The position numbers were made by a program, and so were the translations under genes. Of a DNA stretch of 41,498 nucleotides, positions 12,672-21,745 are shown piece by piece. Numbering within the stretch: position 1 is the first letter of the stretch; each line of letters opens with the position of its first letter. The stretch is from Escherichia coli. GTDB taxonomy: Bacteria > Pseudomonadota > Gammaproteobacteria > Enterobacterales > Enterobacteriaceae. Where the stretch lies: the NCBI RefSeq assembly GCF_003334305.1, contig NZ_QOWS01000030.1; one strand, given 5' to 3'. The notes under the pieces are model-generated. The model was given only the letters and a program-made list of their open reading frames with translations. It was not told the origin of the DNA and did no database searches.

Positions 12672-14648
12672 TTATGGCATTACGCCATCAGTCAGATAGT
12701 TGCCATGCTTAACCGCGTGACGCCGCCAGATCAGGAGAATTGCAGTCGAGATTGCAGCCCCCACCAATGCCGCACCAAACCAGCCAATTGCCGCCATAAC
12801 ACCGCCCGCGCCATTATCATGAAGTAAAAAGAGCGAGAAAATGCCGGCACCGGGTGTCGAAAGGCCGATATTCATCGCACCGACAATAGCGCCCGTTACC
12901 ATAGAGCCCAGCACAAACGAACCAATAACCCGCAGCGGATCTTCAATCGCCATCGGGATCGCCCCTTCGGTAATACCTGCCAGCCCTAACAGCCAGGTGG
13001 ATTTCCCGGTCTCAATTTCAAACTCTTTAAACAGGCGCGGTGCGAGCATCGTGGAAGCGGTTACGGTAAATGCCGAAACCATTTTGACGGAGGCGAAAAT
13101 GGCATACGGGCCGTAAACGCCGTTCGCCATTGCGCCCAGGCAGAATGCATAAGCGGCTTTGTTCACTGGCCCTCCAAGGTCAAAGGAACACATAAAACCG
13201 AGAATGGCACCCAGCAACAGCGCGTTACTTCCTGACAGACCGTTCAGCCAGGCGGTAAGCGAGTTATTGATCCAGGCGACAGGTTCTCCCACCACAAACA
13301 GCATCAGACTGCCCGCTCCCAACGTACCGAGCACCGGGTAGAGATAAAAAGTCAGGAATCCATTGAATTTACTGCTAAGACGCAAGTGATTTTTCACCCA
13401 GCGCATCAAGTAACCGGCTATCAATCCGCCAACGACCGCGCCGAGAAACCCGGAGCCGATCATGTTGGCGGCAAGTCCAGCCGCAAAGCCTGGCGCTAAC
13501 GCCGGTTTATCTGCCAGAGAATAGGCGGTATAGGCCGCGAGCACCGGTACCATCAAAATTCCGAGCAGCCCGCCGCCCAGCTTGCGGTACATCCACAGCC
13601 AGGAGTTTTCTTCATTAAACAGATCTTGTAGCCCGAAGATTTGCGACAGTAATACCGCGACCGCCAGCACCGTGCCCCCCGCGACAATCAACGGTACGGC
13701 AAAAGAGATTCCGCTCAACAGTGCCTGTTTCAGCTCCGTTTTGACACTTTTCACCGGTTGCGTATCTTGCTGTACGGTACGCGTCTCATCGCTACGCTTG
13801 AGGGTAAGCGCTTGTTGGATCAACGCTTCTGCATGGCGAATCGGCTCGGCAACAGGCACTGAAAGCGCGGGAATGCCATTAAAACGCTCACTCTCCTTGA
13901 TGGCGACTTCAGCCGCAAAAATACAGGCGGTTGCACTATTGAGTTGATCCGCCGTTAAACGCCCTTCAATGCCGTTAGCGCCTTGTTTTTCAACGTAAAC
14001 ATTTACGCCGAGTTTGCGTCCGGCTTTTTCCAGATATTCCGCAGCCATATAGGTGTGAGCAATACCCGCCGGACAGGCCGTTACGCAGACGATAGTTGGC
14101 GCGTTGGAAAAAGAGGCAGAAGGTTGCGTGCCTCCCTTGTCATCCAGCGCCGAGAGCAACTCATCAGGCGTCGTCGCCGACTGTATACGCGCCCGAATCT
14201 CATCATCCGCCAGGCGCGTGGTCAGCGCTGTCAGCAGTTGCATATGCGTAGTACCCGCTTCATTGGGGGGAATCGCCAGCAGCACCACTAAATCAACCGC
14301 TTCCGGGCCATCAACGCCTTCCCACTGAAGCGGCTCGCTGAGTGTGGCGACCGCAAACGCCGCTTCTTTTACCGCAGCAGTTTTGCCATGCGGCACAGCC
14401 AACCCTTCACCTAAGGCGGTCGGGCCAAGGCTTTCACGGCGATACACTTCTTCCAGAAATTGCTCAGTACTGGAAATTTTCCCCAGAGCAGCAAGACGTT
14501 GAGTCAACGCGTGGATGGCCTCTTCACGGCTGGTAAAGCGCGCATTCAGACACAACGCATCGCGGTGGGTCAGAGTCGTCAGATTCATCATGATCCTCAC
14601 TTGATCGTTTTTATAGTCGCGCCAGTGTGCCCGATAAAACAATACCAT
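12672..14648 (-). CDS. mngA: PTS 2-O-alpha-mannosyl-D-glycerate-specific EIIABC component, 658 aa
   Basis: ORF 12672..14648 minus; N-terminal EIIA-like region, EIIB cysteine motif ([17 protein letters not shown]) and fructose-type EIIC membrane domain. Confidence 0.9.
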
Positions 14649-14756: not shown

Positions 14757-15479
14757 ATGGGACACAAGCCCTTATACCGGCAGATTGCCGATCGCATTCG
14801 TGAACAAATTGCGCGTGGCGAGCTTAAACCTGGCGATGCGTTACCTACCGAATCGGCATTACAAACAGAGTTTGGCGTCAGCCGGGTTACGGTGCGTCAG
14901 GCTTTGCGCCAGTTAGTCGAGCAACAGATCCTCGAAAGCATTCAGGGCAGCGGGACTTACGTCAAAGAAGAGCGGGTCAATTACGATATTTTTCAGTTAA
15001 CCAGTTTTGATGAAAAACTGTCGGACCGTCACGTCGATACACACAGTGAAGTCCTGATATTTGAAGTGATTCCGGCTGACGATTTTCTTCAGCAACAGCT
15101 ACAAATCACCGCGCAGGATCGTGTGTGGCATGTGAAGCGCGTGCGCTATCGCAAGCAAAAGCCAATGGCGCTGGAAGAAACCTGGATGCCGCTTGCGTTG
15201 TTCCCGGATCTCACCTGGCAGGTCATGGAAAATTCAAAATATCACTTTATTGAAGAAGTGAAGAAAATGGTTATCGATCGTAGCGAACAGGAAATCATTC
15301 CTCTGATGCCAACCGAAGAGATGAGCCGTCTGCTTAATATCAGCCAGACAAAGCCGATTCTTGAAAAAGTATCGCGTGGATATTTAGTTGATGGTCGGGT
15401 GTTTGAATATAGCCGCAACGCTTTTAATACCGATGACTATAAATTTACCCTGATAGCGCAACGAAAATCATCGCGATAA
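14757..15479 (+). CDS. mngR: GntR/HutC-family transcriptional regulator MngR (FarR), 240 aa
   Basis: ORF 14757..15479 plus; MGHKPLYRQIADRIREQIARGELKPGDALPTESALQTEFGVSRVTVRQAL (wHTH GntR N-terminus) plus UTRA effector domain. Confidence 0.93.
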   Translation: MGHKPLYRQIADRIREQIARGELKPGDALPTESALQTEFGVSRVTVRQALRQLVEQQILESIQGSGTYVKEERVNYDIFQLTSFDEKLSDRHVDTHSEVLIFEVIPADDFLQQQLQITAQDRVWHVKRVRYRKQKPMALEETWMPLALFPDLTWQVMENSKYHFIEEVKKMVIDRSEQEIIPLMPTEEMSRLLNISQTKPILEKVSRGYLVDGRVFEYSRNAFNTDDYKFTLIAQRKSSR

Positions 15480-15480
15480 G

Positions 15481-15507
15481 CACAAAAAAGGCCATCATAC
15501 GATGGCC
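15481..15507 (-). terminator. Rho-independent terminator of the sdh-suc operon downstream of sucD
   Basis: Stem GGCCATC(15490..15496) / GATGGCC(15501..15507), 4-nt loop; on the minus strand the hairpin is followed by TTTTTTGTG (plus-strand A-run 15484..15489). Confidence 0.7.
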
Positions 15508-15582
15508 AACCATGTCGAAACCGACAGCCCTTCGCCATTCCTGTAGAGGGAAGCGGCGAGGGCTATTTCTTATTACAGATAT
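15482..15582 (-). ncRNA. sdhX: Probable SdhX (RybD) 3'UTR-derived sRNA locus
   Basis: About 100 nt between the sucD stop (15583) and the terminator hairpin, the reported position of the SdhX sRNA processed from the sdhCDAB-sucABCD transcript. Coordinates are approximate; the 5' processing site cannot be read from sequence. Confidence 0.5.
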
Positions 15583-16452
15583 TTATTTCAGAACAGTTTT
15601 CAGTGCTTCACCGATATCCGCCAGGCTGCGAACGGTTTTCACGCCTGCGGCTTCCAGAGCAGCAAATTTCTCATCCGCAGTCCCTTTCCCACCGGCAATG
15701 ATGGCACCCGCGTGGCCCATACGTTTGCCTTTCGGCGCAGTCACACCAGCGATGTAACCCACAACTGGCTTGGTAACATGCTCTTTGATGTACGCTGCCG
15801 CTTCTTCTTCAGCGCTACCGCCGATCTCACCGATCATTACGATCGCTTCGGTCTGCGGATCTTTTTCGAACATTTCGAGAATGTCGATAAAGTTAGAGCC
15901 AGGGATCGGGTCACCGCCGATACCAACACAGGTCGACTGACCGAAACCGTAATCCGTGGTCTGTTTAACCGCTTCATAGGTCAGTGTACCGGAACGGGAA
16001 ACGATACCCACTTTACCCGGTTTGTGAATGTGACCCGGCTGGATACCGATTTTGCATTCACCCGGAGTGATAACGCCCGGGCAGTTCGGGCCGATCATAC
16101 GAACGCCGGCTTCGTCCAGTTTCACTTTCACAGTCAGCATATCCAGCGTCGGGATGCCTTCAGTGATGGTGATAATCAGTTTGATGCCTGCATCAATAGC
16201 TTCCAGAATGGAGTCTTTGCAGAACGGTGCTGGTACGTAGATAACAGAAGCGGTAGCGCCAGTAGCAGCAACAGCTTCACGCACGGTGTTGAACACCGGC
16301 AGGCCGAGGTGGGTAGTACCGCCTTTACCTGGGGTTACGCCGCCAACCATTTTAGTGCCGTATGCAATGGCCTGTTCTGAGTGGAAAGTCCCCTGGCTAC
16401 CAGTAAAGCCCTGGCAGATAACCTTGGTGTTTTTATCAATTAAAATGGACAT
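15583..16452 (-). CDS. sucD: Succinyl-CoA synthetase alpha subunit, 289 aa
   Basis: ORF 15583..16452 minus; [45 protein letters not shown]...; start overlaps the sucC stop by 1 nt. Confidence 0.97.
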
Positions 16453-17618
16453 TATTTCCCCTCCACTGCGGCAACAACCTGCTGAGCTGCATCCGTCAGA
16501 CCTTTTGCTGCAATAATATTCAGGCCGCTGTCAGCCAGTTTCTTCGCGCCGAGTTCGGCGTTGTTACCTTCCAGACGTACCACGACCGGTACGTTAACAC
16601 CCACTTCTGCTACCGCGCCGATGATACCGTCAGCGATCAGGTCGCAACGAACGATACCGCCGAAGATGTTAACCAGAACGGCTTTCACTTTGTCGTCAGA
16701 GAGGATGATTTTGAACGCTTCGGTTACACGTTCTTTGGTTGCGCCGCCGCCAACGTCAAGGAAGTTAGCCGGTTCGCCGCCGTGCAGTTTAACGATGTCC
16801 ATCGTACCCATCGCCAGACCTGCGCCGTTAACCATACAACCGATGTTACCGTCCAGCGCAACGTAGTTCAGTTCCCACTGTGCAGCCTGTGCTTCACGCG
16901 GATCTTCCTGCGACTGGTCACGCATTTCGCGCAGATCAGGCTGGCGGAACAGTGCGTTGCCGTCAGCGCCCAGTTTGCCGTCGAGGCAAATCAGATCGCC
17001 CTGTTTGGTGATGACCAGCGGGTTGATTTCGATCAACGCCAGGTCGCGCTCCAGGAAAATGGTCGCCAGGCCCATGAAGATTTTGGTGAACTGCTGAACC
17101 AGTTTACCTTCCAGACCCAGTTTGAACGCCAGCTCGCGTCCCTGATACGGCATCGGGCCTGTCAGCGGATCAAGCGCAACTTTATGGATCAGGTGCGGAG
17201 TTTCTTCCGCCACTTTTTCGATTTCCACGCCGCCTTCGGTGGAGGCCATAAAGACCACGCGACGGGAACTACGGTCTACAACGGCACCGAGATACAGCTC
17301 TTTAGCGATATCGGTCGCTGCTTCAACCAGAATCTGGTTAACCGGTTGGCCATTGGCATCTGTTTGATACGTTACCAGACGCTTGCCGAGCCAGTTTTCT
17401 GCAAAAGCACGGATGTCTTCTTTGCTGTTTACAACTTTCACACCGCCCGCTTTACCGCGGCCACCAGCGTGAACCTGACATTTCACTACCCACGGGCCGG
17501 CACCGATTTTTGAAGCGGCTTCTTCTGCTTCGCGCGGAGTAGTACAGGCATAACCCACCGGTGCTGGTAAGCCATAGCGGGCAAAAAGTTGTTTTGCCTG
17601 ATATTCATGTAAGTTCAT
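16452..17618 (-). CDS. sucC: Succinyl-CoA synthetase beta subunit, 388 aa
   Basis: ORF 16452..17618 minus; [60 protein letters not shown]... Confidence 0.97.
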
Positions 17619-18943: not shown

Positions 18944-21745
18944 TTATTCGACGTTCAGCGCGTCATTAACCAGATCTTGTTGCTGTTTCTGGTGAACGGA
19001 CATATACCCTACCGCCGGAGAGGCGGAGGCCGGGCGGCCTGCATAACGCAGAGAAGCCCCAAACGGAATCACTTCACGGAAATGATGCTGGCTGCAGTAC
19101 CATGCGCCCTGGTTGAGCGGCTCTTCCTGGCACCAGACAAAATCCTTGACGTGAGCAAACTGCTGCAACACTTCCTGCATCGCTTTATGCGGGAACGGGT
19201 AGAGTTGCTCGATACGCACAATGGCGACATCGTGTTGATTGTTCTTACGACGCTGTTCCAGCAGGTCGTAATAAACCTTACCAGAACACATCACTACGCG
19301 CTTCACGCCCTTCGGATCAAGCTCGTCGATTTCACCGATGGCTGGCAGGAAGGTGCCGTTCGCCAGTTCTTCGAGGCTGGAAACCGCCAGCGGATGACGC
19401 AGCAGGGATTTCGGCGACATCACGACCAGCGGACGACGCATCCCGCGCAGCGCCTGACGACGCAGCATGTGGTAAACCTGTGCCGGGGTAGACGGTACGC
19501 AAACCTGCATGTTTTGCTCAGCACAAAGTTGCAGATAACGTTCCAGACGCGCGGAGGAGTGCTCCGGCCCCTGCCCTTCGTAACCGTGCGGCAGCAACAT
19601 CACCAGACCACACATCCGGCCCCATTTCTGCTCGCCAGAGGAGATGAACTGGTCGATAACCACCTGCGCACCGTTGGCGAAGTCACCGAACTGCGCTTCC
19701 CAGATGGTCAGGGTGCGTGGTTCTGCGGTGGCATAACCGTATTCAAACGCCAGCACTGCTTCTTCAGACAGTACGGAGTCCCAAACACGGAACGCGCCCT
19801 GGCCGTTATGGATGTGTTGCAGCGGCGTGTAAGTGGAACCGTTAGACTGGTTGTGGATCACCGCGTGGCGGTGGAAGAAGGTACCGCGACCGGAGTCTTC
19901 ACCCGACAGGCGAACCGGAATGCCTTCGTCAACCAGCGTGGCGTAAGCGAGGTTTTCCGCGCCGCCCCAGTCGAACAGTTTCTCACCGGCAGCCATCGCC
20001 TGGCGATCGCCATAAATCTTGGCAACGCGAGACTGCATTTCAACCGCTTCCGGCACCGTGCTGATGCGTTTAGCCAGTTCCTGCAGGCGCTTCATCTCAA
20101 CTTTGTTCGGGTACTCTTCGTCCCATTCGTGGTTGAGGTACGGCGACCAGGTGAAAGAGTGCATGTTCATCGGACGCCACTCTGCTACCACGCAATCGCC
20201 AGCATCCAGCGCATCGCGGTACAGGTTAACCATCTCGGTGGCATCTTCCAGCGTCGCCACTTTTTCCTGCTCCAGCTTGTCAGCGTAGATTTTGCGCGGT
20301 GTCGGATGTTTTTTGATTTTCTGATACATCAGCGGCTGGGTTGCGCTCGGCTCGTCGGCTTCGTTGTGGCCGTGACGGCGGTAGCATACCAGGTCGATGA
20401 AGACATCACGTTTAAAGGTGTTACGGAAATCGAGCGCCAGACGGGTCACAAAGGCAACGGCTTCCGGATCGTCCGCGTTAACGTGGAAAATCGGTGCCTG
20501 AACCATCTTGCCGATATCAGTACAGTACGGCGTAGAACGGGCATCCAGCGGATTAGAGGTGGTGAAACCAACCTGGTTGTTGATAACGATACGTACCGTA
20601 CCGCCAACTTCATAACCACGCGCTTTCGACATGTTCAGGGTTTCCTGAACCACGCCCTGTCCGGTCACTGCGGCGTCACCGTGGATGGTAATTGGCAGCA
20701 CTTTGTTGCTGCTCGGCTCATCAAGTCTGTCCAGACGGGCACGAACAGAGCCGATAACGACCGGGCTTACAATCTCAAGGTGAGACGGGTTAAACGCCAG
20801 CGCCAGGTGCACCAGGCCGCCATCGGTCTGGAAGTCAGACGAGAAGCCCATGTGGTATTTCACGTCACCCGTGCCGAGGTGTTCTTTATGTTTACCGGCA
20901 AACTCGTCGAACAAGTCTTGCGGTTTTTTACCCAGCACGTTCACCAACACGTTCAGACGACCACGGTGCGCCATCCCGAGAACCACTTCCCGGGTGCCGC
21001 TGTTGCCAGCGTGGCGGATCATCTCTTTAAGCATCGGGATTAACGCGTCACCGCCTTCCAGCGAGAAGCGTTTTGCGCCAGGGAATTTTGCGCCGAGGTA
21101 ACGTTCAAGGCCTTCAGCGGCGGTCAGTTCGCTTAAGAAGCGTTTTTTCTCTTCGCTATTGAAAGTCGCGCGACCAGACTCGATACGCTGTTGGATCCAG
21201 CGTTTTTCTTCGGTGCTGGTAATGTGCATATACTCGGCACCAATCGGGCCGCAGTAGGTTTGCTTGAGGGCTTCCAGCAGCTCGCCGAGTTTCATGGTTT
21301 CTTTGCCGCTGGCAAATGAACCGACGTTGAAGGTCTCCTGGAAGTCTGCTTCGGTCAGATCGTGGAAAGACGGATCCAGATCGGCCACTTTATCTTGCTG
21401 CCACAGTCCCAGCGGATCGAGATTCGCATGCTGGTGACCACGGAAGCGGTATGCGTTAATGAGCTGCAGGACTTTAACCTGCTTTACATTGGTGTCAGGG
21501 TCGGAGATCGTTGAAGAGTAACGTGAAGCGTCTTTCGCCAGGCGGCGGAAATATTCACGCGTTTGAGAGTGGAATTGATCCGGTTTGACTCCCGTACCAG
21601 GTAACTGCTGGAACGTCGAACGCCAGTTAGCGTCAACCGAGTCAGGATCGGTTAAGAAGTCTTCATAGAGCTGTTCTATCCAGCTCTGGTTTGCGCCAGA
21701 GAGGTAAGAAGAGTCCAACCAGGCTTTCAAAGCGCTGTTCTGCAT
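18944..21745 (-). CDS. sucA: 2-oxoglutarate dehydrogenase E1 component, 933 aa
   Basis: ORF 18944..21745 minus; [50 protein letters not shown]... Confidence 0.97.

Follow-up and report, generated by a model that had tools for sequence, protein, structure and literature searches.

What is encoded between the stop codon of sucD and that of the convergent gene mngR in Escherichia coli? The window analysed here, a stretch of 41,498 nucleotides of E. coli DNA (contig NZ_QOWS01000030.1 of assembly GCF_003334305.1), contains in order sucC (16452..17618), sucD (15583..16452, minus strand), the region in question, mngR in convergent orientation (14757..15479, plus strand) and mngA (12672..14648). The open reading frame list and NCBIfam identified sucD, the last cistron of sdhCDAB-sucABCD. 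Its product of 289 amino acids matches NF004230 (succinate--CoA ligase subunit alpha) with 492.5 bits against a cutoff of 336, and its TAA stop codon lies at 15585..15583 on the minus strand. The upstream sucC was also assigned by NCBIfam, and mngR, a GntR-family repressor that lies outside the region, by NF007292 (525 bits) and the K-12 annotation. Downstream of the sucD stop, no minus-strand open reading frame of at least 40 amino acids is listed within 15482..15582. The original prediction had described about 100 nt of non-coding sequence between the sucD stop and a terminator hairpin; the non-coding character of these 101 nt holds, but 75 nt separate the stop from the start of the hairpin, and the 100 nt or so thus include the terminator.

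The same interval had been proposed as the position of the small RNA SdhX (RybD), with sucD as part of its parent mRNA, and comparison with E. coli K-12 bears this out. The MG1655 record (NC_000913.3) carries an ncRNA gene sdhX, b4764, described as 'small regulatory RNA SdhX', at 765050..765150 (101 nt). It begins directly past the sucD stop codon and finishes 2 nt before mngR, exactly as in the window, where the mngR stop codon lies 2 nt past the annotated sdhX 3′ end. Identity to NC_000913.3 is 100% over 131 aligned nucleotides, comprising the gene and flanks and spanning 765050..765150, and the coordinates predicted from the sequence, 15482..15582, are exactly those of the curated K-12 gene. 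The 101 nt read on the minus strand from 15582 to 15482 are AUAUCUGUAAUAAGAAAUAGCCCUCGCCGCUUCCCUCUACAGGAAUGGCGAAGGGCUGUCGGUUUCGACAUGGUUGGCCAUCGUAUGAUGGCCUUUUUUGU; we number them from the first base after the sucD stop, so that nt 1 is 15582 and any coordinate is 15583 minus the nucleotide number. We consider the published 3′UTR-derived, Hfq-dependent sRNA SdhX (RybD), acting by its published mechanism, to be the best explanation of 15482..15582; none of the results contradicts it, and we put the probability of the identification at about 97%. In this window sdhX is a real and ordinary feature that is already known and annotated.

Annotation of the gene is uneven. A search of Rfam 15 at gathering and at permissive thresholds gave no match to an SdhX/RybD family. 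The best sub-threshold match, to isrD, covered the terminator only (17.3 bits where 37 are needed, E = 0.6); we rejected it as generic and terminator-like, and a snoRNA match from the permissive search as spurious. Covariance models thus speak neither for nor against the assignment to SdhX. In the other E. coli genomes listed, PGAP annotates nothing over this stretch, and sdhX is named in the curated K-12 record only.

SdhX, formerly RybD, has reportedly been known as an Hfq-bound RNA since Zhang et al. in 2003, and an E. coli companion study by De Mets et al. (PNAS, 2019) is said, in other papers, to deal with it. Its functional characterisation dates from 2018-2019. RNase E cuts it out of the ~10-kb sdhCDAB-sucABCD mRNA, of which it is the 3′ end, and it has no promoter of its own (PMC6393394). 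In Salmonella it occurs as forms of 87 nt and 38 nt (PMC6393394), and a review gives lengths of ~101 nt and ~38 nt (PMC9438474). Hfq binding and AckA repression have been documented by Hfq co-IP, CLIP, RIL-seq and CLASH, and by reporter and western assays (PMC6393394, PMC9438474, PMC7213987).

A terminator scan identified a Rho-independent terminator hairpin, GGCCATCGTATGATGGCC, at nt 76-93 (15490..15507, minus strand). It has a 7-bp stem, in which five of the seven pairs are G-C, and a 4-nt loop. The hairpin is followed by a U6 tract at nt 94-99 (15484..15489, minus strand), where the sequence places the transcript 3′ end and which is presumably the site for the proximal face of Hfq. A GC-rich hairpin with a U-tract is thus present in the sucD 3′UTR as predicted. 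This is the only terminator-like site between 14500 and 16600, although the scan alone is not above chance (one site found against 2.5 expected in shuffled sequences). The fold of the 101 nt has an energy of -41.3 kcal/mol, compared with a mean of -26.1 for dinucleotide shuffles (z = -4.7), and none of 200 shuffles was as good. We judge the feature to be real from its position, the z-score of its fold and its conservation.

Upstream of the terminator the RNA consists of two parts. The first contains a hairpin at nt 19-57 (15526..15564, minus strand) in the minimum free energy structure; it is specific to Escherichia and not conserved outside this genus. A REP element was considered as the origin of this hairpin and rejected, the RepRanger table having neither REP nor RIT for sdhX. 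Within the hairpin lies the katG-pairing region, CGCUUCCCUCUACAG, at nt 28-42 (15541..15555, minus strand), which includes C34 and was located from a duplex calculation and the published work (PMC6393394). The second part is a conserved block, UUUCGACAUGGUU, at nt 63-75 (15508..15520, minus strand), recognised by its invariance in the alignment; it pairs with ackA and fdoG, and the window contains one exact copy of it. The block includes the seed, UUCGACAUGGU, at nt 64-74 (15509..15519, minus strand), directly upstream of the terminator, with the core CGACAU at nt 66-71. The seed likewise has a single exact copy in the window, and there are five near-matches with up to two mismatches where 1.3 are expected. 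Nucleotide 62 is G and nucleotide 34 is C, the bases that were mutated in the published E. coli experiments.

A candidate RNase E site, GG|UUU (nt 61-65), falls between nt 62 and 63 (15520..15521, minus strand). Its homology to the mapped Salmonella site suggests that cleavage here could give the ~38-nt form, as does a Salmonella mutant in which UUU>CCC blocks processing (PMC6393394). The resulting short form, approximately 15484..15521 on the minus strand and called SdhX2 in the Salmonella nomenclature, would consist of the seed and the terminator, and it matches the published 38-nt form in length and composition. In this processed form the seed core is predicted to be 94% unpaired.

To examine complementarity to the published targets, we calculated RNA duplexes between SdhX and the 5′ regions of K-12 ackA, fdoG and katG, with 500 shuffled targets as controls. 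Nucleotides 65-73 form nine Watson-Crick pairs with ackA from -2 to +7, and a G-U wobble takes the duplex to +8. This corresponds to the published pairing of the seed with the ackA start and second codons, by which acetate kinase is repressed and pta is not (PMC6393394). The link between the TCA-cycle operon and acetate metabolism that the original prediction drew, through ackA, is as published (PMC6393394, PMC9438474). With fdoG, nt 62-71 form ten Watson-Crick pairs at -22 to -13; G62 stands opposite C-13, which is the register of the published compensatory mutants showing that G62 lengthens seed pairing to fdoG in E. coli (PMC6393394). The energies of the short seed alone are modestly better than shuffled (18 of 500 shuffles were as good for ackA and 50 of 500 for fdoG), as expected for seeds of 9-10 bp. 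With katG, nt 28-42 pair at -21 to -6 in a duplex of 14 bp and -27.1 kcal/mol, and none of the 500 shuffled targets was as good. Compensatory mutations have shown that this non-conserved upstream region, with C34, pairs with the katG Shine-Dalgarno sequence (PMC6393394), and both SdhX-ackA and SdhX-katG chimeras were recovered by Hfq CLASH in E. coli (PMC7213987).

A further complementary site is found within the operon itself. The sequence CAUGUCGAAA in sucA (18944..21745), at 20624..20633 on the minus strand (codon 372), is perfectly complementary to SdhX nt 63-72 and encodes an in-frame internal Met-Ser-Lys on the same operon mRNA. We rejected it as a meaningful target, since by a rough estimate about 0.16 occurrences of a 10-mer are expected in 41.5 kb, which is within chance.

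For comparison between species we sampled loci anchored on SucD, without using the sRNA sequence. A scan for sucD ends, with a degenerate pattern of the SucD C-terminus and the stop codon after it, returned 18 loci, seven of which were real sucD ends, the rest being chance matches in unrelated proteins. The seven came from E. albertii, E. whittamii, Escherichia sp. E1V33, E. coli, two Siccibacter and one MAG labelled Citrobacter, whose locus is nearly identical to that of Escherichia. Members of the SucD 90% cluster, with look-ups of contigs encoding the exact proteins, added Salmonella enterica, Klebsiella pneumoniae and K. quasipneumoniae, as well as Pectobacterium jejuense, Morganella morganii and one gammaproteobacterial MAG. 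The comparison within the Enterobacteriaceae is based on nine loci (four Escherichia, two Siccibacter, one Salmonella and two Klebsiella), with the nearly identical locus of E. coli E69 and the Citrobacter-labelled MAG set aside.

In all nine, TTTCGACATGGTT stands after sucD and directly before a terminator with its U-tract. A lack of conservation in the terminator-proximal 30-40 nt across Enterobacteriaceae, which had been named as grounds for refuting the prediction, is therefore not seen. The block UUUCGACAUGGUU is invariant in eight aligned sequences representing four named genera and the Citrobacter-labelled MAG. The terminator stem is paired in 100% of cells in these eight sequences; at one position Escherichia has U-A and the others have C-G, a compensatory change, and the loop varies. 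Between the stop codon and the block lie 37-62 nt that show no relationship from one genus to another: Escherichia has a long hairpin there, and Salmonella, Klebsiella and Siccibacter have short ones that differ. Thus the seed is the fixed part of the RNA, and what varies is the 5′ part of the 3′UTR together with one base at the seed edge, which is G62 in E. coli and U in Salmonella. The original prediction had this the other way round, describing the seed upstream of the terminator as variable between enterobacteria. In Pectobacterium, Morganella and the gammaproteobacterial MAG the seed block was absent after sucD, and a terminator only was found there. This agrees with an independent survey from 2026, in which SdhX was confined to Enterobacteriaceae although sucD is conserved (PMC13085923).

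Taken together, the RNA adjoins the sucD stop, is homologous to the reference gene, and has the seed, the terminator with its U-tract and the complementarity to ackA, fdoG and katG that define sdhX. It also has the properties of a type II 3′UTR-derived Hfq sRNA: it shares its terminator with the parent mRNA, it carries a conserved single-stranded seed between stop codon and terminator, and conservation of the 3′UTR reaches beyond what a terminator needs.

Within E. coli the locus is present in every complete genome searched. A 301-nt query around the site matched in 5,426 of 5,426 complete genomes, with 100% identity over the 301 nt in strain M8, and 5,425 genomes contain at least 80% of the 101 nt as one piece. 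Identity is at least 99% in 4,086 of the 5,426 genomes, 95-99% in 1,334 and 80-90% in 7. The only genome with less than 80% in one piece is that of E. coli FDAARGOS_944 (NZ_CP065613.1, 2619..3500), in which an IS1 has inserted into sdhX after nt 73 (15510/15509 in the window). The insertion parts the seed from the terminator and is a natural disruption of the sRNA.

Sequence variants were inspected in a small, non-random set. In this set, substitutions fall in the 5′ hairpin (nt 36 and 45-46), in the terminator loop (nt 82) and in the stem (nt 92, producing a G-U pair), and the core CGACAUGG is untouched by the sampled polymorphisms. E. coli DCE7 (NZ_CP090611.1) carries a natural U64G change, with GGUGUCGAC instead of GGUUUCGAC, at the edge of the processing site and the fdoG-pairing region; this change could alter processing or the regulation of fdoG.

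Gene content changes abruptly where the terminator ends. Among E. coli lineages and Escherichia species, homology breaks at nt 99-101, right past the SdhX U-tract (15479..15484 in the window), as seen at seven loci. The genes downstream are mngR-mngA in the window and K-12, and elsewhere a LysR/cobO/class I fumarase island, a TPR protein or a convergent RtcB-family gene, which by its annotation runs into the final 2 nt of the match. In about 1,540 of the 5,426 genomes no mngR stands at the sdhX junction.

Could the region be simply the terminator of the operon? The operon terminator does lie here, and a terminator scan that finds one site where 2.5 are expected does not by itself argue for more. 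We nevertheless give this reading practically no credence: 13 single-stranded nucleotides outside the hairpin stay the same in four genera while the UTR around them and the loop of the terminator diverge, a pattern that a plain terminator does not predict, and published compensatory mutations and base-pairing regulation of ackA, fdoG and katG refute it (PMC6393394). There is next to no chance, too, that the region encodes a small protein. An ATG at nt 70-72 opens a readable frame of 22 codons, MVGHRMMAFFVLIAMIFVALSG, but no Shine-Dalgarno sequence precedes it, and the frame crosses the terminator, so that terminated transcripts would lack its stop codon. Nor is it conserved, as the sequence past the U-tract is non-homologous in other E. 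coli lineages and genera. In favour of an independent sRNA gene of the MicL type, transcribed from its own promoter inside sucD rather than released by processing, is the published remark that the levels of SucD and SdhX do not move together (PMC6393394). Such a gene is highly improbable, since there is no promoter-like minus-strand site within ~420 nt upstream, and the sole site that the scan gave, at 16028..16001, matches only weakly (9/12), in a total at chance level (three found, 2.3 expected). Moreover, no transcription start site or conserved promoter has been reported, and both SdhX species are lost in a temperature-sensitive RNase E mutant (PMC6393394). The lack of a promoter-like site close upstream fits biogenesis by processing.

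The opposite strand has a somewhat better claim. On this view the region also, or mainly, provides the convergent mngR with its 3′UTR and terminator, and this role would be the reason for the 5′ hairpin peculiar to Escherichia. In its favour, 2 nt separate the mngR stop codon from the 3′ end of sdhX. Read on the plus strand, the complement of the 5′ hairpin (15526..15564) folds and runs into a U-rich stretch, UAUUUCUUAUU (to 15575), and no U-tract follows the complement of the SdhX terminator. Against this, E. coli lineages and Escherichia species in which mngR is not beside sucD (four loci and E. albertii) keep the hairpin at 97-100% identity. We therefore regard it as unlikely, and at most as an added role that would not replace the reading of the region as SdhX. 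If it were true, use of the plus-strand terminator would make the mngR 3′UTR fully antisense to SdhX.

A second lead concerns the form in which SdhX is active. It may be that full-length SdhX is a pro-form with its seed partly masked; cleavage would then take away the mask besides shortening the RNA, and processing would be a step of activation. In the predicted structures the seed core pairs with an upstream anti-seed that differs between genera (UGUCG/CGACA in Escherichia, AUGUC/GACAU in Salmonella, UGUC/GACA in Klebsiella and UCGAA/UUCGA in Siccibacter), and the candidate RNase E site sits in a U-rich loop between anti-seed and seed (15514..15526, minus strand, in the window; homologous at four other loci). 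The probability that CGACAU is unpaired is 0.11-0.50 in full-length forms and 0.94 in the processed form. Controls with shuffled upstream sequence already average 0.47-0.53 (standard deviation 0.19-0.24), however, and the lineages are not independent; masking is not significant against these controls, and only Salmonella falls in the lowest 5% of its own. The published processing-site mutant, which still regulates when overexpressed (PMC6393394), also speaks against the model. We hold it to be improbable, and both anti-seed masking and the opposite-strand terminator are leads not reaching SIGNIFICANCE.

Returning to SdhX as published, its identity, position, structure, conservation pattern and complementarity to three targets are established for the window. 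RNase E processing, Hfq binding, repression of AckA, FdoG and KatG in vivo and the physiology are taken from the literature for this locus, which would be expected to work as follows. Transcription of sdhCDAB-sucABCD would continue through sucD and stop at the hairpin and U6 tract (15507..15484). RNase E would then free the 3′ end as species of ~101 nt and ~38 nt, both of which should bear the seed UUCGACAUGGU in single-stranded form just before the terminator. Pairing of the seed across the start and second codons of ackA would lower translation of acetate kinase and leave pta unrepressed. Because ackA is repressed and pta is not, expression of the TCA-cycle operon would be tied to the metabolism of acetate and acetyl-phosphate. 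In E. coli, the seed as extended by G62 would also pair with fdoG, and the Escherichia-specific nt 28-42 would pair with the Shine-Dalgarno region of katG.

The identification has no discovery value, as SdhX has been known since 2003 and is annotated in the K-12 reference. It does confirm that the first-stage reader is able to recognise a 3′UTR-derived sRNA from raw sequence, and it exposes a gap in annotation, with no match in Rfam 15 and a blank in PGAP for the other E. coli genomes examined. The SucD-anchored comparison provides an independent picture of the published idea of a fixed seed-plus-terminator module with a free 5′ part. Elsewhere in the window, Rfam identified the CpoB/ybgF intercistronic RNA thermometer at full length (1004..1142, minus strand, 142 bits), and a tRNA with anticodon UUU (Lys) lies at the window start (5..77, minus strand); both fit the E. 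coli tol-pal-cpoB-lysT neighbourhood.

The closest known system is SdhX/RybD of E. coli K-12 (b4764), which is alike in position, length, sequence (100%), seed, terminator, G62, C34 and complementarity to ackA, fdoG and katG, and there is no difference in the sRNA itself. Salmonella SdhX1 (87 nt) and SdhX2 (38 nt) come from the same locus after sucD and share the block UUUCGACAUGGUU, the kind of terminator and the primary target ackA. Salmonella SdhX has U in place of the E. coli G62, and for this reason does not regulate fdoG. It also lacks the katG-pairing 5′ hairpin, its 3′UTR is shorter (75 nt to the end of the U-tract, compared with 99 nt in E. coli), and it controls two genes, fumB and yfbV, that are not regulated by E. 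coli SdhX (PMC6393394). CpxQ, SroC, NarS, MalH and GlnZ are likewise mRNA 3′ ends released by RNase E, in which the mRNA terminator serves as the Hfq-binding module and the seed lies just upstream (PMC6393394, PMC9438474). Unlike CpxQ, SdhX is unusually poorly conserved outside its short seed, and it differs from other 3′UTR-derived Hfq sRNAs in being derived from the end of an operon of eight genes and ~10 kb. When its short form was described, no shorter functional Hfq sRNA had been reported (PMC6393394).
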